A stretch of 64,000 nucleotides of DNA from Actinomycetota bacterium (GTDB taxonomy: Bacteria; Actinomycetota; AC-67). The stretch covers positions 1,138 to 65,137 of the forward strand of contig DASWHR010000141.1 in the NCBI GenBank assembly GCA_036398095.1, in the 5' to 3' direction. Under the pieces are notes generated by a model that did not search any database, had not been told where the DNA came from, and saw nothing but the letters and a program-made list of their open reading frames with translations. The translations under genes were made by a program, and so were the position numbers. Shown here piece after piece: positions 2,248 through 47,198 of the stretch (position 1 is the first letter of the stretch; every line of letters begins with the position of its first letter).

Positions 2248-3143
2248 CCCCAGATCACCAGAACGGTATAGGTGACGGGCAGGACGACCAGCAGCGAGTC
2301 GATCCGGTCGAGCAGACCGCCGAAACCGGGCAGCCACGTGCCGGCCTCCTTGACGCCGAACTGTCGCTTGATGAGCGACTCGAGCAGGTCGCCCCAGACG
2401 CTGGCCAGCGCGACGGCGAGCGGCAGCGTCCAGCGCACGACCGGGCTGAGCGCCGCGGGGACTGCAAAGCTCATCAGCAGGAAGCCCAGGTATGCGCCGG
2501 CGACGTTGCCGGCGACGCCTTCCCAGGTCTTGTTCGGGCTGAGCCGCGGCGCGAGGCGATGCCGGCCGCAGAGCTTTCCGGCAGTGAACGCACAGACGTC
2601 GCTGGCGGCAACCGACGCGCCGAGCGCCAGCAGGATCGCCGCTCCCCCGTCCACATGCTGCTGGATCAAGATGAAGTAGGCGAGCAGCCACGGGATGTAG
2701 GCAAAGCCCAGCGCCGCGTACGCCAGATGCCGCACGCCGTCTTTGACGTCTTGGCTCAGCAGCGGCGGGATCGTGGCGGCGACCAGAAGGATCGGCGGCA
2801 TGGCTCGCCATATGGTCAGCGAGGTCGCCGCGATGGGCGCGCTTGCGATACCGGCCGCATACATGGCGTAGCGGTATCGCTTCGGAAGGCTCACGATGCG
2901 CGCGTACTCGCGCAGGCCGACGATGGTGAGCGCCTCGACGAACGCGACGGCGGCCCAGCGGCCGCCCATGACGGCGAGCCCGAAGATCGGCGCGGTGATC
3001 GCCCAGGTGCGCCAGCGCACGAACAGCACGCGCCGCGTCATCTCTTTCCAGTGACGTCGCTCGGCGATCGCGATCAGCCCGAGCGTGCCGCCGAGCGCGA
3101 GGCTCATGCGCGTCGCGCCTTCGACCGCGAGCCCGTCAAGCAT
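2244..3143 (-). CDS. cdsA: Phosphatidate cytidylyltransferase (CDP-diglyceride synthetase).
   Basis: SPNKTWEG, GDLLESLIKRQFGVKE and GFGGLLDRIDSLL motifs. The start is probably the ATG at 3143 (MLDGLAVEG), 5 nt after the pgsA stop. Confidence 0.85.
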   Translation of the reverse strand: MLDGLAVEGATRMSLALGGTLGLIAIAERRHWKEMTRRVLFVRWRTWAITAPIFGLAVMGGRWAAVAFVEALTIVGLREYARIVSLPKRYRYAMYAAGIASAPIAATSLTIWRAMPPILLVAATIPPLLSQDVKDGVRHLAYAALGFAYIPWLLAYFILIQQHVDGGAAILLALGASVAASDVCAFTAGKLCGRHRLAPRLSPNKTWEGVAGNVAGAYLGFLLMSFAVPAALSPVVRWTLPLAVALASVWGDLLESLIKRQFGVKEAGTWLPGFGGLLDRIDSLLVVLPVTYTVLVIWG

Positions 3144-3735
3144 CGAGACGTTCCTTGATCCGCACGACGCGCGCGGCCGCGGTGATCGCCGCGCCGGCAC
3201 CGATCGCGATGCAGGCGACCGTCCACGCGGCGGGCTGCGCGGGCGCGATCAGCGCGGCGACGCCGACGACGAGCATCCGGTCGGCTTTGCCCATCGGACC
3301 GCCGTAGTCGCGCTCGCCGGTGGCGGCGTGGGACACGATGCCGGCACACGACGACACTAGCGCCGCGGCGAGCGCGCCCAGCGCGAGCGCCGGATGGACG
3401 ATGAGCGCCAGCGGGGCGACAAAGAGCGTGTCGGCGGCACGGTCGCAGATCTCGTTGAGCGCGGCGCCCCACGGGCGGGCGGTGCCGGTGCGGCGCGCGA
3501 CCGAACCGTCGAGCGCGTTGAGCGCGATGCGGATCAGCGCGAGCGGGGCGACGGCGAGCCACAGCAGCGGCGCGGCCAACGCGGCGCCCGCCCAGATCGC
3601 CAGCGCGGCGACGCCGGCGGCGGCGACCGCCGCGTAGGTGAGCGCGTCGGCGGAGACCCGCATCGTGACGAGCAGATCCTCGGTGCCGCGCAGGCGGCGA
3701 ACGAACCAGGGCTTGATCGCATACAGACCGTTCAT
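3136..3735 (-). CDS. CDP-alcohol phosphatidyltransferase (PgsA-like phosphatidylglycerophosphate synthase).
   Basis: CDP-alcohol phosphatidyltransferase signature DGSVARRTGTARPWGAALNEICDRAAD, and multiple TM helices. Confidence 0.75.
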   Translation of the reverse strand: MNGLYAIKPWFVRRLRGTEDLLVTMRVSADALTYAAVAAAGVAALAIWAGAALAAPLLWLAVAPLALIRIALNALDGSVARRTGTARPWGAALNEICDRAADTLFVAPLALIVHPALALGALAAALVSSCAGIVSHAATGERDYGGPMGKADRMLVVGVAALIAPAQPAAWTVACIAIGAGAAITAAARVVRIKERLDA

Positions 3736-6700: not shown

Positions 6701-7567
6701 CTACTGCGGGCAGCCGGTTTCGTCGGGGAGCAGGGGACGAAGAATCAGTTCGTATTGACGGCCTTCGCTCGTCCACGGCGTCCGCGCGTTGGACTCTTTG
6801 AACGCGGGCAACGCCCGGTCCAGTTCGGCGCCCTCGATCACGCCGCAGCGGTAGCGGTCGCCGTAGGCGGCACCCCAGGATGCGACCGGGGTATCAAGCG
6901 GCCATGCTTTCGGCGGTTGCGTGAGACCGTCGTCGGATTGGGTGTAGCCGCTCGCGTAGACGCGGAGCCGTTCGACCTCGGCGGGCTTGTCCTCGCCGAA
7001 CGATCCGTTCGGGAGCCACGAGGACACGTCCGAGAGCTTGTCGCGCAGCTTCGCAAGCTTTGTCCGCGCCTCGCGCTCATCGGCCGTTTGACCGGGCGGG
7101 GCGTTGCCGCCTTCGGCCTCGAAGCCGAGCGCGTAGGCGCGGATCGTGTGGGTCTTGCCGTCGTCGTCGACGAAGGTGAAGACGGTGGTGCCGGCGTCGG
7201 CGACCAAGTCGTAGCGATACTCCTTGTCGGGTCCGTCCAAGCCGGCGGCCTTCGCTTCGGCAATGATCGCGTCGATCCCGTCCGATTCGATCGGGCGGAC
7301 GAGCAGCGGCGGCATCGCGGGCCCGGGATAGATCGCGATCTGCGCGCCGAGCGTGAACACGCGCCCGTCGCCCGTCAACGTGAATTCGGGGATCCGCTGC
7401 AGCGTGTATTCCTGCGGGATGAAGCCGCCTTCGGTGGACATGCGAAGGATCAGCGAGTTCGGCTCGCGAGCGCCGCCGGTTCCGGGTGAGTTCACGTCCG
7501 CCTTTCCACACGAGAGCGCAACCATCGCCAGCGCAACCAGTCCGGCCGCCATCTTCAACCGTGTCAT
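6701..7567 (-). CDS. Putative lipoprotein or secreted protein of unknown function.
   Basis: N-terminal signal with Cys (LVALAMVALSCGK). ATGA overlap with the upstream response-regulator stop at 7564-7567. Confidence 0.6.
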   Translation of the reverse strand: MTRLKMAAGLVALAMVALSCGKADVNSPGTGGAREPNSLILRMSTEGGFIPQEYTLQRIPEFTLTGDGRVFTLGAQIAIYPGPAMPPLLVRPIESDGIDAIIAEAKAAGLDGPDKEYRYDLVADAGTTVFTFVDDDGKTHTIRAYALGFEAEGGNAPPGQTADEREARTKLAKLRDKLSDVSSWLPNGSFGEDKPAEVERLRVYASGYTQSDDGLTQPPKAWPLDTPVASWGAAYGDRYRCGVIEGAELDRALPAFKESNARTPWTSEGRQYELILRPLLPDETGCPQ

Positions 7568-19245: not shown

Positions 19246-20159
19246 GCGATGCCCTGCACGAGGCGCCGGCCGGCGTGCGGCTGTGGGTGGCGGGTGCGCG
19301 GCCGCGAACGCTGGGCGCGTCGGTCGCGCCGGTGATGGCCGGCGTCGCGGCGGCGCCGGCGATCACCTGGTGGCGCGCGCTGGGCGCGCTGATCGTTGCG
19401 GTCGCCTTCCAGGTCGGCGTCAACTATGCGAACGACTATTCCGACGGAGTGCGGGGCGTGGACGCGCGCCGCGTCGGGCCGCTGCGACTGACGGCATCGG
19501 GCCTCGCGGCGCCGCGCGCGGTTCGGGCCGCTGCGATCGCATCATTCACCGTCGCGGGGCTCGCGGGCTTGGCGCTCGCGATTTCGGTCGATCTGCGTTT
19601 GCTGATCGTCGGTGCGGCCGCCTTGGGTGCGGCGTCGCTGTATTCGGGCGGACCGAAGCCGTACGCGGGGCTGGGCCTGGGAGAGGTGTTCGTGTTCGTG
19701 TTCTTCGGGCCGGTGGCCGTCGCGGGAACGACATACGTGACGTGGGGCGCGGGCGTCCTGGGCGCGATCCCGCCGGTCGCGTGGTGGGCGGGCGCGGCGA
19801 TCGGATTGCTCGCGGTCGCGATCCTGCTCGCCAACAACATTCGCGACATCCCGACCGACGCGGCCGCCGGCAAGCGAACGCTGGCGGTGCGACTGGGCGA
19901 TGCGGAATCGCGCGCGCTGTTTCGCGGCATCGTCGCGTCGTCCTTCGCGGTGATGATCGTCGCCGTCGCGCTGAGTGATGCACCGCGGTGGACGCTGCTG
20001 TGTCTGGCGGCGCTGCCGGTCGCGATCCGCCCGATGCGCGCGGTCGGATCGGCGCGAGGCCCGGCGATGGTGCCGGTCCTGCTGGGCACGGCGACGCTGA
20101 ACCTGATCTTCGGCGCGCTGCTCGCCGCCGGACTCACGATCGAGCGGGTGACGGCGTGA
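19242..20159 (+). CDS. menA: 1,4-dihydroxy-2-naphthoate polyprenyltransferase (UbiA family).
   Basis: NDYSD and NNIRDIPTD motifs, polytopic membrane protein. GTG start overlapping the menB stop. Confidence 0.85.
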
Positions 20160-21838
20160 CCGGCAACGCCGAGATCGCGCTGGCCTGCGCATCGCTGCTG
20201 GCCGACGAACTTGCCCGCGGCGGCGTCGAAGACGTATGCGTTTCGCCCGGCGCGCGATCCACGCCGCTGGCGCTGGCGGTCGCGCGCCATCCGCGATTGC
20301 GCGTCCACGTGATCTTGGACGAACGGTCGGCGGCGTTCTTCGGCTTGGGGATCGCGAAGGCGACGCGCCGCGCCGTCGCGCTGGTGTGCACGTCGGGGAC
20401 GGCGGCGGTGAACTGGCATCCGGCGATCGTCGAGGCGCGCTATTCGCAGACGCCGCTGATCGCGCTTTCGGCCGACCGGCCACCCGAACTGCACGACACC
20501 GGCGCGAACCAGACGATCGATCAGCGCGGACTGTTCGCATCGGCGCCGCTGTGGTTCTTCGAGATGCCGGTCCCCGCGATCGAAGACGACAGCGAGCGCG
20601 TCTGGCGATCGGTCGCGGCGCGCGCCGTCGCGGTCGCGGCGGGACCGCCGGCCGGGCCGGTGCATCTGAATCTTCCATTCCGCGAGCCGCTGGCGCCCTC
20701 GGCCGAGATCCCGGATCTCGGCTCGGGCCGCGAAGGCGGTGCGCCGTGGGAGCGTCACTCCCCCGCCGCGCTCGCGGCCGATGCGCACCCGATCGAAGAC
20801 CTGGCCCGGTTGATCGAAGCGGCCCGGGACGGACTGATCGTGTGCGGCGGACTCGAAGACGACGCGCCATCGATCCTGGACCTTGCCGAGCGGATCGCGT
20901 GGCCGCTCGTCGCGGAGCCGCAATCGGGCCTTCGCCGGGACGGCGCGCTGTCGGCGCCGCAATTGATCCTTGACCGGATCGACCCGTCGGTCGTGCTGTC
21001 TGTCGGCGCGCCGCCGACGTCGCGCGCGACGCGCGCGTTGCTCGGCCGCGCCGGCCGCGTCGTGACGGTGGATCCCTCGCGATGGAACGACCCGGATCGC
21101 CGCTCGTCGTGGACGCTTCGCGCCGACGCGGCGCTGCTCGCCGACGCGCTGATCGCCACGATCAAGCCGCGCGAGGATCGCGCGTGGATCGAGCGATGGC
21201 GCGCGGCGGATGCGGCCGCGCGTGATGCGGCCGACACGCTGATGGACTCGTGGGACGAGCCGTTCGAAGGGCGCGTGGCGCGCGACGTCGCGCGGGCGGT
21301 GCCGGCCGGCGGGCTGCTGGCAATCGGATCGTCGTTGCCGGTGCGCGACTTGGATACGTTCATGGCCCCGCGCGAGGACGTGTGGGTGATCGGCAATCGC
21401 GGCGCGAGCGGCATCGACGGGTTCGTGTCAACGGTCCTGGGGATCGCGCAGACGGGCGAGCCGACGGTCGGGCTGATGGGCGACCTGACCTTCCTGCACG
21501 ACGCCGGATCGCTCGCCTGGCTCGCCTCGCGCGCGAAGCCGGCGGTGCTGGTGGTCGAAGACAACGGCGGAGGCGCGATCTTCGACCTGCTGCCGCAAGG
21601 ATCGATCCGCGAAGCCGACGATCTGTTCGTCACGCCGCACGAGCTTTCCATCGAAGCGATCGCGCGCGCCGCCGGGTGCCGCACCCGCCGCGTCACGCGC
21701 GCCGCCGACGTCGCCGAGGCGGTCGCCGAGGCGGTGGCGGCCGGCGAGACGACCGTCGTGCACGTCGAGTGCGCCCGCACGGCCGGCCCGCCCCGCCGCG
21801 CGGAGATCGCCGCAGCCGTCGCACACGTGACGAAGTAG
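20156..21838 (+). CDS. menD: 2-succinyl-5-enolpyruvyl-6-hydroxy-3-cyclohexene-1-carboxylate synthase (thiamine-PP enzyme).
   Basis: Three-domain TPP enzyme (GDLTFLHD TPP motif). GTGA overlap with the menA stop. The track ORF start at 19988 is an upstream extension. Confidence 0.85.
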   Translation: MTGNAEIALACASLLADELARGGVEDVCVSPGARSTPLALAVARHPRLRVHVILDERSAAFFGLGIAKATRRAVALVCTSGTAAVNWHPAIVEARYSQTPLIALSADRPPELHDTGANQTIDQRGLFASAPLWFFEMPVPAIEDDSERVWRSVAARAVAVAAGPPAGPVHLNLPFREPLAPSAEIPDLGSGREGGAPWERHSPAALAADAHPIEDLARLIEAARDGLIVCGGLEDDAPSILDLAERIAWPLVAEPQSGLRRDGALSAPQLILDRIDPSVVLSVGAPPTSRATRALLGRAGRVVTVDPSRWNDPDRRSSWTLRADAALLADALIATIKPREDRAWIERWRAADAAARDAADTLMDSWDEPFEGRVARDVARAVPAGGLLAIGSSLPVRDLDTFMAPREDVWVIGNRGASGIDGFVSTVLGIAQTGEPTVGLMGDLTFLHDAGSLAWLASRAKPAVLVVEDNGGGAIFDLLPQGSIREADDLFVTPHELSIEAIARAAGCRTRRVTRAADVAEAVAEAVAAGETTVVHVECARTAGPPRRAEIAAAVAHVTK

Positions 21839-21851
21839 CCGAGCCGGACAG

Positions 21852-22220
21852 TTGCGCAACAAGTTTGTTGCGCGCTATGCTCTCCCTATGCCCGATCCCA
21901 TTCAGCGAAAGATCAAGGCCTTGGTGGATTCGCTCGGCGGTTCCGTGGTCGCAGAACTGCTCGGGGTCGATCGTTCGCAACCCTCGCGCTGGAAGAGTGG
22001 CAAGAGCCAGCCGTCGGCCCAGATGCGCGGGCGGATCCTCGACCTCGAATACGTGCTCTCTCGGCTGGAGGAGATCTTCGAACCGGCGGTCGCGGTGGAC
22101 TGGCTCTACGGGATCAACGCGTTTCTCGGGCATCAGCGACCGATTGACGTGATGCGCATCCGGGGGGTCACGGAAGTCATCGGAGCCGTCGACGCCGAAG
22201 CAGGTTTGGCGTTTGCCTGA
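21852..22220 (+). CDS. Xre-family HTH antitoxin of a RES-Xre (MbcA/ParS-like) module.
   Basis: N-terminal HTH (LVDSLGGSVVAELLGVDRSQPSRW) and a C-terminal DUF2384-like toxin-binding domain (GRILDLEYVLSRLEEIF...AVDWLY). Confidence 0.65.
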   Translation: MRNKFVARYALPMPDPIQRKIKALVDSLGGSVVAELLGVDRSQPSRWKSGKSQPSAQMRGRILDLEYVLSRLEEIFEPAVAVDWLYGINAFLGHQRPIDVMRIRGVTEVIGAVDAEAGLAFA

Positions 22221-22770
22221 TCTCTACCGCGTCTTTCCCTATGATCCGGACGCGGCCCCACACGAGCCGGGCGGGGCGCTCCATGCTCCCCGAGATCGTC
22301 AGGGCAACGGACGCGCGGACAACCCAGGCCGCTACAGCGTCGTGTACTTCGCTGCGACACCTGCCGCAGCGGCCGCAGAACGCTTTCAATCCTTTGCCGG
22401 ACGCCGCGTGACGCCTGCCCACCTGCGTGGCGGCCGATCGGGACTGCCCTTGGCACTAGCGAACGTCTCAGTTCGACGCGACGACGCTCGCAATCTGGAC
22501 GACCCGGCTGCGCTCCAAGAACACGCCTTGATTCCCTCGGACGTCGCGACGCGCGATCGCCATGTCACGCAGGCCTGGGCATTGCGCTTGTGGGAGGCGG
22601 GCTTCCCCGGTGTGCGCTACTGGTCGGCCATCGAGGCCAAGTGGCCGGTGATCGCGCGGTGGTCGCTCGATGACGTGCGCGTGGAGCAGGTCGAGCCGCT
22701 CACCGTCTTCCACGCCGCGCTGCGGGAAGCGGCGGCCCTGCTCGGCATCGAGATCGGACGCAGTCGCTAG
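22213..22770 (+). CDS. RES-domain toxin (MbcT/ParT-like NAD+-targeting toxin).
   Basis: RES-domain layout with a conserved Arg context (GRYSVVYFAATP) and later Glu/Ser residues. 8-nt overlap with the Xre gene. Confidence 0.6.
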   Translation: MPDLYRVFPYDPDAAPHEPGGALHAPRDRQGNGRADNPGRYSVVYFAATPAAAAAERFQSFAGRRVTPAHLRGGRSGLPLALANVSVRRDDARNLDDPAALQEHALIPSDVATRDRHVTQAWALRLWEAGFPGVRYWSAIEAKWPVIARWSLDDVRVEQVEPLTVFHAALREAAALLGIEIGRSR

Positions 22771-22880
22771 GAGGGTGCTGAAAAAGACCGACCCGTGCCT
22801 GGTCGGACTTCAATCAGCCCAGGTCGGAGGGTTAACGTCGGGCGGGCATGCATGCAGACACTCACTTTTTCAGCACCCTC

Positions 22881-22884
<4 letters not shown>
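22767..22884. mobile_element. 118-bp MITE-like element, copy 1, with 20-bp terminal inverted repeats (CTAGGAGGGTGCTGAAAAAG ... CTTTTTCAGCACCCTCCTAG).
   Basis: Near-identical copy at 45805..45922. The terminal CTAG supplies the TAG stop of the RES toxin (+) and of menF (-). Internal palindromes (gcatgcatgc, gttaac). Confidence 0.65.
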
Positions 22885-24091
<1,207 letters not shown>

Positions 24092-24095
<4 letters not shown>

Positions 24096-25621: not shown

Positions 25622-26449
25622 CTAGAGGGCGGCGATCTCGCTCATCGCGGTTTCGACGAACTCGTCCAAACGGGGCTTGCCTTCGCTGGGCCAGCCGACC
25701 GTGAGATACGTGAAGCCGGCTTCGGCTTTGGCGGCCGCGTCGTGGCGGATTTCGTCCATGGTCTGCGACAGGCTCAGCGCGGTGGACCGCGCGATCGACG
25801 ACGGGTCGCGGCCGGCGGCGCGGGCGGCGTCGTCCACGATCCCGCTGCGCCGCTTCAGATCGTCGGGATTGCCGAAGGTGTGCCACACGTCGGCAGTACG
25901 GCCGACGAGCGCCAGCATCCGCGGACCGTGCCCGCCGACCCAGATCGGCGGATGCGGTCGCTGCACCGGCTTCGGGCTGTAGCCGCCTTCGAGGCGGTAG
26001 TGAGTTCCTTCGAAGCGCGGATCGTCTTGCGTCATCAGCGCGCGTATCACCCCGATCGCTTCCTCGAGCCGTTCGATGCGGTCGCCCGCGCGGGGGAAGT
26101 CGATGCCGAGGCGGCGATGCTCGGGCTCGTGCCAGGCCGCGCCGACGGCAAGCTCGAGCCGGCCGCCCGAGATGTGATCGACCGTGACGGCTTCAGTCGC
26201 CAGCATCGACGGGTGACGGTAGGTGATGCCGGTCACGAGCGTGCCGAGCCGGATCCGCGTCGTGATCGCGGCGAGGCCGGCCAAAAGCGTCCACCCTTCC
26301 AGGCACGGCCCGGCCGGATCGCCGTAGAGCGCCGTGAAATGATCGAAGACCCACGCGCCGTCGAAGCCGGCATCTTCCGCGTAGCGCGTCCGATCGACGA
26401 TCTCGTTCCAGGTGAGCTGATGCTGCGACACGTCCAGTCCGAGCTTCAT
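25622..26449 (-). CDS. LLM-class (luciferase-like) F420-dependent oxidoreductase.
   Basis: Luciferase-like monooxygenase fold (GFDGAWVFDHF, RLELAVGAAW). Confidence 0.8.
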   Translation of the reverse strand: MKLGLDVSQHQLTWNEIVDRTRYAEDAGFDGAWVFDHFTALYGDPAGPCLEGWTLLAGLAAITTRIRLGTLVTGITYRHPSMLATEAVTVDHISGGRLELAVGAAWHEPEHRRLGIDFPRAGDRIERLEEAIGVIRALMTQDDPRFEGTHYRLEGGYSPKPVQRPHPPIWVGGHGPRMLALVGRTADVWHTFGNPDDLKRRSGIVDDAARAAGRDPSSIARSTALSLSQTMDEIRHDAAAKAEAGFTYLTVGWPSEGKPRLDEFVETAMSEIAAL

Positions 26450-44458: not shown

Positions 44459-45808
44459 ATGAGGATCCTCGCGTTCACCACAGATGCCTCGCTCGAGGTG
44501 GCTCTTGCCTCGCTCGACGAGCGGTTCGAAATCGTCGCCGCCCGCGATCCGGAAGGGGCGCTCGCCGAGGCGTGCCGGTCGGATCTTGCGCTCGTCGCGC
44601 TGGGCACGACCGATCGCGGCCGCAGCGCGGTCGAAGCGCTGCACCGGCTGCGCGTCGGCATCCCGTGCCTGATCGTCGGCGACGTCGTTCCCGGCGACGA
44701 CGGAGCCGTCCCTGTGCTCGTGCGCCCGTTCTCGCTCGGCGACCTGACCGAGGCGATGGTGCGTGCCGTGCAGCGCCCGTCAGTCCCGGAGTCTCAGCCG
44801 GAGCCCGAGCCGGAGGCCGCCGAACCCTTCATTGACCTGCCTCCCCCGGTCGCCACAGCGGCGCAGCCGGAGCCGGAACCACAGCCGGAACCGGAGCCGG
44901 AACCGCAGCCGGACGAGGTACCGGACGAGGTACCGGCGGCGTTTCCCGATCACGAGACGGTCGAAGAATTGCTTCGGCAATTGGAGGAGGCCGCGGCCGC
45001 CGTGCCGCCCGCCGCCGCAACACCGTCCAGGGATCCGGTGTCGTGGGCGCTGGACGCGCTGCACGAGATCGGCGACGCCCCCGCGCCCGAACCGCGAGCG
45101 CGGCCGCTTCCGGCCGGCGCCGCGCCCGAGCAAGAAGCCACCGCCGCGCGCATCGTGCGTCATGCCGCCGCCGCTCCCCGCAGCGGCGACTGGCTCGCCG
45201 ACCGCGGCGGCGAACGAAGCGGGCTCCATCGCCTGCGTCGCCGCCGGCGTGCGATCCCGGTGGCCGGCTCGCCGCGCGCATCGATCATGCGCCGCGTCCG
45301 CTCGGCGCTGGAAGGCGCGCGCGAACTGGAGGCGCTGCTCGAAGAGATCCCGTCCCTGTCGGACCCGCATGCGATGGCGCGCGCGCTGGTGCGCGAAGCC
45401 GTCGAGCTGCTCGGCTCCGAGACGGCGGCGCTGTACTCCGCCGACCCCGACGGGTATCGCATCGCCGCGGCGCACGGCTTGTCCCCCGTCGAGCAGTCGA
45501 TTGTGGTTCCGCGCGAGCAGCCGTTGTTCGGCGACGTCGCCGGCCGCTTGGAAGCGGTTCTGGTCGCGCCGGTCGATCTGGTTCGGGGGCTCGTCGCAGG
45601 CATCGGCGGCACAACCACCGAGGCACTGATGCTCGCGCCGCTGGACGTGGACGGGCGATGCGCCGGCATTCTGCTCGCCGGCCGTTCGCGCTTCGGAGAC
45701 GAAGACTTGGAACGTCTGTGGCATCTCGCCGAGGAAGCAGCGCCGGGCTTCGCAGCCGCGCGACTGATCGAGCGGATCCGCCGGCGCGACCTTCCCGTCG
45801 CGCTCTAG
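44459..45808 (+). CDS. Regulatory protein made of a receiver-like N-domain, a Pro/Glu-rich (PEPEPQ) repeat linker and a C-terminal GAF domain.
   Basis: The N-terminus resembles a degenerate REC domain. Tandem PEPEPQ coding repeats at about 44790-44935. The C-terminal about 170 aa is GAF-like. Confidence 0.6.
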   Translation: MRILAFTTDASLEVALASLDERFEIVAARDPEGALAEACRSDLALVALGTTDRGRSAVEALHRLRVGIPCLIVGDVVPGDDGAVPVLVRPFSLGDLTEAMVRAVQRPSVPESQPEPEPEAAEPFIDLPPPVATAAQPEPEPQPEPEPEPQPDEVPDEVPAAFPDHETVEELLRQLEEAAAAVPPAAATPSRDPVSWALDALHEIGDAPAPEPRARPLPAGAAPEQEATAARIVRHAAAAPRSGDWLADRGGERSGLHRLRRRRRAIPVAGSPRASIMRRVRSALEGARELEALLEEIPSLSDPHAMARALVREAVELLGSETAALYSADPDGYRIAAAHGLSPVEQSIVVPREQPLFGDVAGRLEAVLVAPVDLVRGLVAGIGGTTTEALMLAPLDVDGRCAGILLAGRSRFGDEDLERLWHLAEEAAPGFAAARLIERIRRRDLPVAL

Positions 45809-45922
45809 GAGGGTGCTGAAAAAGACCGACCTGTGCTTGGTCGGACTTCAATCAGCCCATGCCGGAGAGTTAACATCGGGCGGGCTTGCATGCAGACACT
45901 CACTTTTTCAGCACCCTCCTAG
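45805..45922. mobile_element. 118-bp MITE-like element, copy 2, with the same 20-bp terminal inverted repeats as copy 1.
   Basis: About 93% identical to 22767..22884. Its left CTAG supplies the TAG stop of the REC-GAF gene. Confidence 0.65.
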
Positions 45923-45947
45923 CAGGATCCGGGTACGCTAACGCGCC

Positions 45948-46436
45948 ATGCGCACCCGAACGGCGGGCATGATCGCCTCGCGCGTCCTCGCGATCTATAT
46001 CGCCTTCACGTCGATCATCTTTTCCGGCGAGTTGATTCACGCGCTCATCGAAGGTCGCCCGGCCGGCGTCGTCGCCGAATCGGCCCTGCCGGCCGGCGTC
46101 GCGCTCGGACTGGCGCTGCTTCTTTGGGTCGCCGCGCCGGCCGTCGCCGATCGTCTGGCCGGCAGCGCGAGCGGCGGCGCGGGCGAAGAAGACTCGCCGG
46201 CCCGCGCCGCGGACATCGCGGCGATTGCATTCACCGTCGCCGGGCTGTTCATCGCCGCCCAGGCGTTGCCTCTGGTCGCGCACGCGCTGACGCGACTCGC
46301 GATCGGCGAAGGCACCGGGCGCGACATCGCGGCGGATCTCGCCTCGGCCATCGCTCGCACCACCATCGGAGCGGCGCTGGCCGCGACCGCCCGGTCGCTT
46401 GCCAAGCGCTTGTTTGCGCCCGAAAGCACCCGGTAG
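45948..46436 (+). CDS. Hypothetical polytopic membrane protein.
   Basis: Four or more hydrophobic helices. More plausible than the Arg-rich antisense ORF 45900..47135. Confidence 0.45.
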   Translation: MRTRTAGMIASRVLAIYIAFTSIIFSGELIHALIEGRPAGVVAESALPAGVALGLALLLWVAAPAVADRLAGSASGGAGEEDSPARAADIAAIAFTVAGLFIAAQALPLVAHALTRLAIGEGTGRDIAADLASAIARTTIGAALAATARSLAKRLFAPESTR

Positions 46437-46517
46437 CTCCCGCCCTTCAGATCGCGGGGAAAGTCTGCCCGATCGGACATGTTCGGATGCCGGCGATCTG
46501 GGGCAGGATTGAAAGTC

Positions 46518-47198
46518 ATGCGTCCGGTCGCCGTTCCCACGAGTGTCGTTTCGGCGCTGGCCGTTGCGATCGCGGCACTGCTGACGGCCGGCACCCCGAT
46601 CGCGATCCGCCACGCATCGACGAACGCCGCCGGGGGGTCGGACATCGTCCCGAGCGCTCGAGACGGCATCGAGGTCGTGATCGCGCCACGCTCCGCGGGT
46701 TCGCGAAGCGACCGCGCCGAAACCCGCCGGCCCGCCGAGGCAGTTGCCGGTCCCGCCGTGACCGACCCCGCCACAACTCCGATGGCCGCGACCGCGGCGC
46801 CCTTCACACTCGAGCTTCCGGACGGCTGGTCGGGCGGAGAGATCGGCGCCTTCGACGACGACGCGAAACGCTCGTTCCGCTACACCGACGAGGCCGGCCG
46901 GTATTTTGTGGTCAACATCGATCCGGCCGGAAGCGAGTTCGACGCCGACGAAGTCTGGCGCTATCGCGTGGAAGACCACGAACGCTTCGTCGTGACCCGT
47001 CAGGAGCGCTGCGTTCCGAGCGAACCGATGTGCTCGCTCGGCGACGGCGCCCAGACGATCTACGCGCTCTGGGACGAGGGCGGCTCGGCCAGGGTCGGTG
47101 GCCACGCCTACTACTTCCGCTTCGGCGATGAGCACAACGAGATCGGCGGGACCCGCGTGTTCCGGCAGATTCTCGAAAGCATTCGCGCCCGGGCGTAA
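46518..47198 (+). CDS. Hypothetical secreted protein.
   Basis: Signal peptide MRPVAVPTSVVSALAVAIAALLTAG. No recognisable domain. Confidence 0.5.
   Translation: MRPVAVPTSVVSALAVAIAALLTAGTPIAIRHASTNAAGGSDIVPSARDGIEVVIAPRSAGSRSDRAETRRPAEAVAGPAVTDPATTPMAATAAPFTLELPDGWSGGEIGAFDDDAKRSFRYTDEAGRYFVVNIDPAGSEFDADEVWRYRVEDHERFVVTRQERCVPSEPMCSLGDGAQTIYALWDEGGSARVGGHAYYFRFGDEHNEIGGTRVFRQILESIRARA

Follow-up and report, generated by a model that had tools for sequence, protein, structure and literature searches.

In Mycobacterium tuberculosis, the toxin MbcT acts as an NAD+ phosphorylase and is paired with an Xre-type antitoxin, its phosphate-dependent cleavage of NAD+ yielding nicotinamide and ADP-ribose-1''-phosphate. 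ParT has been described as an ADP-ribosyltransferase acting on Prs and not as an NAD+ degrader. Structures have been solved for MbcT-MbcA (Rv1989c-Rv1990c, PDB 6FKG), for ParT-ParS (6D0H/6D0I), NatT-NatR (8QNL) and VPA0770-VPA0769 (8GUG), the last three being RES toxins with Xre/MbcA/ParS or DUF2384 antitoxins, and for the Xre-RES pair of Pseudomonas putida (6GW6; 9R35 on promoter DNA), which has the RES fold in common with them and whose promoter contains an inverted repeat through which the complex exerts repression (PMC12204516). We compared with these systems a locus in a 64-kb stretch of DNA from an Actinomycetota host (the window), in which two co-directional ORFs on the + strand, 21852-22220 and 22213-22770, lie between menD and menF and overlap by 8 nt, an overlap that recurs in three related loci (L004, L005 and L007). 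Judging from sequence comparisons and a structural model, we hold with good confidence that the two genes form an Xre-RES (COG5654/COG5642) toxin-antitoxin operon of type II, nearest to MbcA/MbcT, and that this operon is older than, and independent of, a MITE-like repeat now lying beside it.

Toxin and antitoxin compared with MbcT and MbcA

The downstream gene (22213-22770, + strand) encodes a putative RES-domain toxin of 185 aa and begins with a TTG codon inside the end of the antitoxin gene. Its product matched the Pfam RES family (PF08808) at 50.4 bits (E 3.3e-13; gathering score 23.2), and precomputed PF08808 assignments were present in 11/11 of its nearest homologues. The AlphaFold2 model of the toxin was confidently folded (pLDDT 96.8), and a Foldseek search with this model returned MbcT (6fkg) as the best match (E 6.5e-6, TM 0.63-0.64), followed by the P. 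putida RES toxin, ParT, VPA0770 and NatT, with ParT, P. putida RES and NatT at E values of 2e-4 to 7e-4; RES toxins made up 12 of the 13 best PDB matches, an unrelated cyanophage chain occupying rank 6. At the sequence level, phmmer and an 11-sequence profile gave no real match among solved-structure sequences, and a 115-sequence profile reached MbcT alone, at a modest E of 3.1e-4; no match was obtained in NCBIfam. In the profile alignment, R34/Y45/E56 of the toxin were paired with R47/Y58/E69 of MbcT, while R6 and S138 would correspond to MbcT R27 and S126 by position, outside the aligned part. Across the 115 toxin sequences, R6 and R34 were invariant and Y45, E56 and S138 were more than 90% conserved. 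The roles of the MbcT residues derive from mutagenesis, in which S126 proved dispensable (PMC6436930), so that motif conservation alone is a limited test of toxin activity.

The upstream gene encodes a 110-aa protein (21888-22220, + strand) with a predicted N-terminal Xre/Cro/CII-like helix-turn-helix and a C-terminal MbcA/ParS toxin-binding domain. A single-sequence phmmer search matched MbcA (6fkg_C) directly (E 7.6e-8), and a profile of 14 antitoxin sequences reached it at E 2.5e-11 over residues 20-109; the same profile matched NatR (8qnl_A) at E 1.8e-3 and VPA0769 also weakly, and did not reach ParS or P. putida Xre among the solved structures. The antitoxin scored about 23.1-23.5 bits against PF09722 (Xre_MbcA_ParS_C), approximately 1 bit under the cut-off of 24.5, with PF09722 being matched by 14/14 of its homologues and HTH_3 by 11/14; its matches in NCBIfam were all sub-threshold, and PADLOC defence models matched neither protein. 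By sequence, the antitoxin is a homologue of MbcA along nearly its full length. The first-pass annotation, which had read the two ORFs as an Xre/RES (MbcAT/ParST-like) pair, agrees with the PF08808 and MbcA profile matches and with MbcA/MbcT as the closest solved relatives; of the Pfam domains that it had expected, RES was recovered above threshold in the toxin, whereas the antitoxin fell just short of the PF09722 cut-off.

MbcT-MbcA was the best solved match for both proteins, and the likeness extends to chain length (186/115 aa for MbcT/MbcA, 185/110 aa in the window), to a gene order with the antitoxin first, and to an Actinomycetota host, although the toxins are just 17-20% identical in the structural alignment and direct phmmer between them found nothing. 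On these sequence and model comparisons, with MbcT and MbcA as the nearest solved relatives, the toxin would most likely be an NAD+ phosphorylase of the MbcT kind. It is possible, but on balance doubtful, that the toxin is instead ParT-like, ADP-ribosylating a target such as Prs, or a plain NAD+ glycohydrolase like P. putida RES and NatT: all of these share the RES motif and were significant structural matches, yet ParT, NatT and VPA0770 were more distant than MbcTA, the P. putida toxin is shorter (about 145 aa) and matched more weakly (TMq 0.44-0.52), and MbcT both headed the structural matches and was the one solved structure within reach of the toxin profile. The antitoxin, being far nearer to MbcA than to NatR or VPA0769, also argues for the MbcT-type assignment, as do the protein lengths.

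Promoter-like region and candidate operator

Directly upstream of the pair we identified a promoter-like region on the + strand (21852-21881), composed of a -35-like TTGCGC (21852-21857), an 18-nt spacer and a -10 element TATGCT (21876-21881). An ATG at 21888 begins 6 nt past the -10 element, a distance that suggests a leaderless or near-leaderless mRNA. This ATG is most likely the antitoxin start, rather than the program-made ORF start at 21852, since the same 110-aa length was called in L004 and L005 and since the TTG at 21852 falls in the first promoter/palindrome hexamer; in the genome annotation, the antitoxin start should accordingly be placed at 21888.

A perfect 20-nt palindrome, GCGCAACAA-GT-TTGTTGCGC (21854-21873), overlaps the -35/-10 pair and is the presumed operator for the antitoxin helix-turn-helix, by analogy with the P. 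putida complex, in whose promoter the repeat is imperfect. The 64-kb window contained a single copy of the palindrome, against a chance expectation of 0.07 matches. The whole promoter/palindrome block was invariant in L004, L005 and L007 despite proteins just 57-78% identical. Of the 24 family Xre-RES loci that were checked and had upstream sequence shown, at least 21 kept its CGCAAC...GTTGCG arms 5' of the antitoxin gene. The same promoter layout recurred across the family, the -35 element reading TTGACG in several loci. A simple sigma-70 consensus scan of 21500-23200 reported no promoter, the proposed -35 matching the consensus at 3/6 positions, and the assignment is based on cross-locus conservation instead of that scan; a terminator scan found no terminator-like site on the + strand. 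These features suggest that the pair is probably a self-contained operon, autorepressed and near-leaderless.

The menD-menF junction and the adjoining repeat

The left flank of the pair is menD (SEPHCHC synthase; 20156-21838, + strand; TIGR00173, 427 bits vs cut-off 244), whose TAG stop at 21836-21838 lies 13 nt upstream of the toxin-antitoxin promoter; the window MenD has the same start as called in L001, and the protein P0161 is 100% identical to it. The right flank is menF (isochorismate synthase; 22881-24095, - strand; TIGR00543, 283 bits vs cut-off 225), which is convergent with the pair and encodes a product of 404 aa, as called in L001. The gene naming of the first-pass annotation (menE-menB-menA-menD and menF-menG-merR) was borne out by NCBIfam, with menB, menA, menD, menF and menG/ubiE exceeding their cut-offs, menE having o-succinylbenzoate-CoA ligase as its top match at a score below the cut-off, and the 'merR' encoding a 262-aa MerR-family protein. 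The same men gene order was also found in L009, L010 and L011/L012.

In relatives lacking the pair, the stop codons of menD and menF overlapped (TTAA in L009, CTAG in L044 of L044/L045, TTAG in L010) or stood 9-14 nt apart (L011/L012 and L046). Compared with the ancestral men cluster, the pair is therefore added DNA, which upholds the earlier view of an insertion into it. As to the effect on menD and menF termination that had been thought possible, no pair-less relative has a called spacer able to hold a terminator, so there would have been none to disrupt. The same junction was occupied in L004 and L005, whose identities to the window were, respectively, 79% and 61% for MenD, 78% and 64% for MenF, 73% and 62% for the antitoxin and 60% and 56% for RES, with the RES proteins at this site being 54-60% identical to one another and the 13 nt from the menD stop to the palindrome being alike in the window and L004. 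Among relatives with MenD identity of at least 60%, occupancy was patchy (three lineages with the pair, three without), and the synteny comparison suggested earlier did not reveal the pair throughout the clade. Taken together, sequence comparison places the pair as an accessory islet in the gap-free junction of convergent menD and menF, carried by part of the lineages of an uncultured Actinomycetota clade and missing from the rest.

The five closest toxin-antitoxin pairs formed one clade with 100% bootstrap support, and the concatenated tree, ((W,L004),L007),L005, agreed with the host order, with poor support inside the clade. The L005 antitoxin was nearest to that of L007 (78%), which lies in a different genomic context; with the inner tree poorly supported as well, strict co-divergence of the pair with its hosts was set aside. 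The GC3 of the pair was 0.75-0.77 vs 0.85-0.89 for the men genes of the window, and its GC was also lower; in L004, unlike in the window and L005, the GC3 of the pair did not fall below that of the flanks, and these mixed signals gave no date for the insertion. A single gain followed by precise losses appeared weaker than at first look, for the relatives without the pair keep the overlapping-stop junction of the outgroup L010, and allelic replacement via the men flanks could give such a junction either way. Three histories are thus possible: a single old gain followed by losses, repeated gains, and recombinational exchange via the men flanks.

Beyond the junction, the other members of the close clade, L006 and L007, lie outside men clusters, as do 30/30 distant family members. 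In 28/30 distant metagenome loci, sequence similar to the antitoxin lay immediately 5' of the RES gene; the remaining two loci start within 90 nt of the RES match, so that an upstream gene would be out of view. At E <= 1e-3, the family comprised 788 clusters at 50% identity.

It is improbable, in our assessment, that the pair is tied to menaquinone synthesis, either because menBAD read-through and menF-menG antisense transcription or collision set its expression, which would couple an NAD+-consuming toxin to respiratory-quinone supply, or because the Xre protein also regulates men genes. Such a tie would fit the occurrence of the pair in three diverged lineages at the same junction and in the same orientation, with 13 nt separating it from menD without a terminator-like site, and convergent transcripts must overlap here, given that the RES and menF stops overlapped or stood 6 nt apart; however, three equally related lineages do without the pair, the family members cited above reside outside men clusters, and the module has a conserved promoter/operator of its own, whose operator sequence is found nowhere else in the window. 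Inserts unrelated to the pair occur at this junction too, L047 having a Sigma70_r4 gene there and L005 an ORF of 176 aa, and a literature search on toxin-antitoxin pairs in men clusters gave generic matches only, with no such link reported. The narrower proposition that the module has been kept at menD-menF since convergent men transcription (menD read-through, menF antisense) tunes toxin and antitoxin expression is marginally less probable again; if it were true, the condition of the respiratory-quinone pathway would be felt by an NAD+-draining toxin.

We likewise give little credence to the idea that the pair is decaying or has been inactivated and no longer works as a toxin-antitoxin system. 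The differences between the window and L001 (99.7% identical) include four SNPs clustered in the RES gene, giving three amino-acid changes, with the antitoxin and MenF unchanged, and the dispensability of MbcT S126 limits what the conserved motif can tell; against this, the two reading frames are preserved in full in the window, L001, L004, L005 and L007 (L013 comprising the 3' part of the RES gene, a 100% match), R6, R34, Y45, E56 and S138 are all kept, the operator and the gene overlap are conserved, and the toxin model is confidently folded.

On the far side of the toxin gene, the repeat noted in the first-pass annotation was confirmed as a MITE-like element of 118 nt (22767-22884) whose 20-nt terminal inverted repeats (CTAGGAGGGTGCTGAAAAAG) are perfect, together with a second copy at 45805-45922 that lies 23 kb away in the same orientation, is likewise flanked by CTAG, differs at six positions and has no toxin-antitoxin pair attached. 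Matches to the terminal inverted repeat numbered four in the window vs 0.03 expected by chance. The CTAG ends of the first copy contain two stop codons, that of the RES gene (22768-22770), which the element abuts, and that of menF (22881-22883, minus strand), and the left CTAG of the second copy is the stop codon source for a GAF-domain ORF (44459-45808); both copies are bounded by CTAG, yet CTAG also extends the inverted repeat. The element contains no ORF and has a strongly folded RNA (-68.8 kcal/mol, z = -6.6); Rfam gave no match on 21500-23200, the element thus not being a known RNA, and no parent transposase with its ends was found within the window. A terminator-like hairpin with a T-run in it (22778-22806, - strand), oriented against transcripts leaving menF, was detected by consensus scan only, and the terminator-like sites (two vs 0.9 +/- 1.1 in shuffles) were within expectation and provide no evidence of function. 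In its 118-nt length, terminal inverted repeats, absence of an ORF, two CTAG-flanked copies and strong hairpin potential, the element resembles MITEs with CTAG or TA target-site duplications, which we take to be non-autonomous derivatives of IS5- or IS630-type elements.

Beside the pair, the element was confined to the species of the window (L001, L013), with one further copy elsewhere in the window, and it was absent at the pair's junction in L004 and L005; the L004 junction lacks it but differs in sequence and is not an exact empty site. We regard the MITE as a separate element that inserted later, probably into a CTAG in which the stop codons of RES and menF overlapped. The earlier suggestion of a recent insertion, implicitly one delivered by or along with the flanking MITE, is very unlikely: the MITE touches the RES stop codon, the GC and GC3 of the pair are below those of the men genes, and the closest relatives without the pair (L009, L044) keep ancestral overlapping stops, but in L004 and L005, with the MenD identities given above, the pair occupies that junction and no MITE is present, RES identity at the site (54-60%) is far from recent, and the element is one-sided, has CTAG flanks of its own and a second copy away from any toxin-antitoxin pair.

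Proposed mode of action and place in the family

As an MbcTA-like operon predating the MITE, the pair would work as follows. The antitoxin, or the toxin-antitoxin complex, would bind the palindrome and repress the promoter, from which transcription would start at or beside the ATG at 21888, and the toxin would be translated by coupling from its TTG start. Free toxin would consume NAD+, most likely by phosphorolysis like MbcT, and the C-terminus of the antitoxin, AEAGLAFA, would block the toxin active site. The MITE would have inserted later into the CTAG shared by the RES and menF stops, regenerating both. What we infer for the pair thus comprises toxicity and its neutralisation, turnover of NAD+ and binding to DNA.

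Collectively, the pair is a real yet ordinary member of the known Xre-RES family and adds little that is new to it. It represents a divergent branch, as yet uncharacterised, which at 50% identity comprises about 790 clusters, most of them from high-GC environmental bacteria, and whose unusually clear operator/promoter signature (CGCAAC...GTTGCG between -35 and -10) could aid annotation and tests of autoregulation. The locus also offers a probable example of a MITE landing in overlapping CTAG stops with neither gene damaged, and an example of an accessory toxin-antitoxin islet persisting long, and patchily, in the gap-free junction of convergent housekeeping genes.

Identity and control of the Xre-RES pair

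Two co-directional genes overlapping by 8 nt lie between the convergent menD and menF genes, namely ORF 1 (21852-22220 in the mechanical ORF list, before correction of its start), encoding the antitoxin, and ORF 2 (22213-22770), encoding a 185-aa RES toxin. The ORFs and their domain matches bore out the Xre/RES module of the first-pass annotation apart from the antitoxin start, and its men gene names held as well, with menB, menA, menD, menF (isochorismate synthase) and MenG/UbiE above NCBIfam cut-offs and menE matching o-succinylbenzoate-CoA ligase best, though below threshold; menG is followed by a MerR-family gene. In profile searches, ORF 2 matched Pfam RES (PF08808) with 50.4 bits (E 3.3e-13; gathering score 23.2), and ORF 1 scored 23.1 bits on PF09722 (Xre_MbcA_ParS_C), slightly below the 24.5 cut-off, with weak NCBIfam matches to 'type II RES/Xre antitoxin'. 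The single antitoxin sequence matched MbcA of the Mycobacterium tuberculosis MbcA/MbcT pair (PDB 6FKG chain C; E 7.6e-8 across 86 residues), a 14-sequence family profile reached MbcA (E 2.5e-11), NatR (1.8e-3) and VPA0769 (0.049), and PF09722 was present in 14 of 14 family members and HTH_3 in 11 of 14.

The RES toxin is more divergent than the antitoxin, and neither phmmer nor an 11-sequence profile found solved relatives for it. A complete HMMER search over 1.84 billion representatives returned 788 clusters at E <= 1e-3 (170 at E <= 1e-30), and a 115-sequence profile reached MbcT (E 3.1e-4), aligning R34/Y45/E56 with MbcT R47/Y58/E69. The essential residues of MbcT are R27, R47 and Y58, with a contribution from E69, whereas S126 can be dispensed with (PMC6436930); the present family shows no variation at R6 and R34 and conserves Y45, E56 and S138 at >90%. 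The AlphaFold2 model was very confident (pLDDT 96.8, pTM 0.91) and had MbcT as its best PDB match (E 6.5e-6, TM 0.63-0.64), followed by the P. putida RES toxin, ParT, VPA0770 and NatT; the sole non-RES match before E > 0.1 was an unrelated cyanophage chain at rank 6. By all testable criteria of sequence and modelled structure the pair belongs to the Xre-RES family, as a genuine, intact predicted toxin-antitoxin operon that is nearest to MbcA/MbcT and has its own conserved putative operator and promoter.

The menD stop (21836-21838) is followed by a 13-nt spacer and then by a putative promoter, TTGCGCAACAAGTTTGTTGCGCGCTATGCT (21852-21881; -35-like TTGCGC, 18-nt spacer, -10 TATGCT), read from the sequence and its conservation. 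Inside it lies a perfect palindrome, GCGCAACAA-GT-TTGTTGCGC (21854-21873), a putative operator found once in the 64-kb window (chance expectation 0.07 matches). This block is near-invariant in L004 and L005, two diverged lineages with the pair at menD/menF, and in L007, a close pair outside men clusters, despite protein identities of only 57-78%. Of the 24 Xre-RES loci checked with upstream sequence shown, at least 21 carry CGCAAC-short spacer-GTTGCG-TAnnnT ahead of the antitoxin gene, several of them with TTGACG as -35. A simple consensus scan did not flag the promoter at 21852-21881, because the -35 fits only 3 of 6 positions; the call relies on conservation. Since the control block precedes ATG 21888, 6 nt downstream of the -10, this codon is most likely the antitoxin start, giving 110 aa, the length also called in L004 and L005. 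TTG 21852, taken as the start by the first-pass annotation and one gene caller, belongs instead to the -35 hexamer. The mRNA looks leaderless or nearly so in the window's subclade, and a GGAGG leader occurs in more distant members. In P. putida, an inverted repeat mediates repression by the Xre-RES complex of its own promoter (PMC12204516); by analogy the present pair is probably autorepressed through its palindrome.

Compared with the 99.7%-identical L001, from the window's own species, the RES gene carries 4 SNPs within 47 nt (22311-22357), around codons 33-49 and near the predicted catalytic R34, with 3 amino-acid changes; the antitoxin and MenF are identical. Because menA (19547-19623) and the stretch near 26243-26318 show SNP clusters of a similar kind, the one in the RES gene may simply reflect microdiversity within the population or a mosaic assembly.

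Age of the insertion at the menD/menF junction

MAGs of other Actinomycetota and of Dormibacteraeota also have the order menE< menB menA menD> <menF menG (merR). Where relatives lack the pair, the stops of menD and menF either overlap in 4 nt (TTAA at ~7680-7683 in L009, CTAG at ~5660-5663 in L044, TTAG at 3719-3722 in L010, and likewise CTAG in L045; TTAA and CTAG are palindromes) or lie 9-14 nt apart (L011/L012, L046), and the pair is thus extra DNA in a gap-free junction, which supports the insertion proposed at first pass. That the insertion was recent did not stand, since L004 (MenD 79%, MenF 78%, antitoxin 73% and RES 60% identical to the window) and L005 (61%, 64%, 62% and 56%, respectively) carry the pair at this very junction and in the window's orientation; the 13 nt from the menD stop to the palindrome are common to the window and L004. 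Synteny with relatives was accordingly split, the pair being absent from some but present in these diverged lineages, and occupancy is patchy: in the MenD tree the pair-bearing window, L004 and L005 are interleaved with the pair-less L009+L044 and L046, and one sample yields both L045 (without the pair) and L004.

The five closest pairs (window, L004, L005, and L006 and L007 in unrelated genomic contexts) form a single clade with 100% bootstrap that is poorly resolved inside; the concatenated pair tree, ((W,L004),L007),L005, where W is the window, is compatible with the host order, and the nearest relative of the L005 antitoxin is that of L007. In the window and L005 the pair has a lower GC3 than its flanks, but in L004 the two are equal. 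The alternative histories are a single old gain followed by losses, several separate gains, and spread and loss by homologous recombination via the conserved men flanks; each of them contradicts a recent insertion. The pair is an accessory, patchy and not recent islet at the menD/menF junction of an uncultured Actinomycetota clade.

Other small inserts were seen at this junction. In L047, which is more distantly related (MenD 57% identical), a 225-aa Sigma70_r4-domain gene (6750-7427) stands where the pair would be, which suggests that small insertions are tolerated at this junction. L005 alone has an extra 176-aa ORF (2896-3426) between the RES gene and menF, which had no Pfam or NCBIfam match and whose N-terminus, read by eye, looks like a signal peptide. 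In L044 (1844-3984; MenD 80% identical), menA directly follows menE with no menB called between, unlike in the window, L009 and L010.

The MITE-like repeat and transcription termination

The 118-nt MITE-like repeat beside the RES gene (copy 1, 22767-22884) has 20-nt terminal inverted repeats that match perfectly (CTAGGAGGGTGCTGAAAAAG), and 6 positions distinguish it from a CTAG-bounded second copy of 118 nt in the same orientation (45805-45922). Its predicted fold is strong (-68.8 kcal/mol, z = -6.6), and no Rfam family matches it. Among 43 loci checked, it is present only in L001 and L013, both of the window's species (99.7-99.9% nucleotide identity). Removing it in silico with one CTAG leaves ...CGC-TAG-TGC..., in which a single CTAG contains the stops of both genes, TAG for RES and, on this strand, CTA for menF; the MITE thus inserted into overlapping stops and regenerated both. 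It postdates the pair and is independent of it, contrary to the implied tie between the module and its flanking repeat. At copy 2, a GAF-domain ORF (44459-45808) takes its stop codon from the left CTAG, and a mechanical minus-strand ORF (45900-47135), without a Pfam match, enters the right end by 20 nt.

Shared menD/menF stops in pair-less relatives leave no intergenic room for terminators, and from these overlapping or near-abutting stops it follows that the pair displaced no terminator and that convergent read-through is the ancestral condition. On the plus strand, a consensus scan detected no terminator-like site downstream of menD or of the RES gene. A terminator-like hairpin and T-run within the MITE (22806-22778, minus strand), a consensus match only, would face transcripts leaving menF; the 2 terminator-like sites counted are within shuffle expectation (0.9 +/- 1.1). 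Read-through from menD or antisense transcription from menF may affect the pair; a reading of low probability builds on this, in which convergent men transcription would tune the module and make an NAD+-draining toxin respond to the state of the respiratory-quinone pathway.

Distribution outside menaquinone clusters

A metagenome scan gave 31 loci, including L013 from the window's own organism. The other 30 (38-47% identity) all lay outside men clusters; in 28, antitoxin similarity immediately precedes the RES gene, and in the remaining two the RES match starts <90 nt from the locus start, leaving the upstream gene invisible. As a literature search also found no report of a toxin-antitoxin/men link, the men association is local to one small clade.

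Away from men genes, the closest pair (L007, 359-1350) has as neighbours a 130-aa ORF and a nucleotidyltransferase (NTP_transf_2/DUF7342) gene, which may together form another toxin-antitoxin-like pair; the lower GC of this contig (63%) hints at a mobile or foreign context. In a distant RES pair (L002, 5077-8564, and L003), a 402-aa antitoxin of unusual architecture, fusing an N-terminal RRM_1 RNA-recognition motif (E 4e-20) to the toxin-binding domain Xre_MbcA_ParS_C, adjoins a 403-aa HEPN_RES_NTD1-RES protein.

Xre-RES is a family already known, to which the pair adds one further member. What can be reused is the operator signature kept throughout the Xre-RES family of the pair, together with the corrected antitoxin start, and the insertion of a MITE into shared CTAG stop codons.
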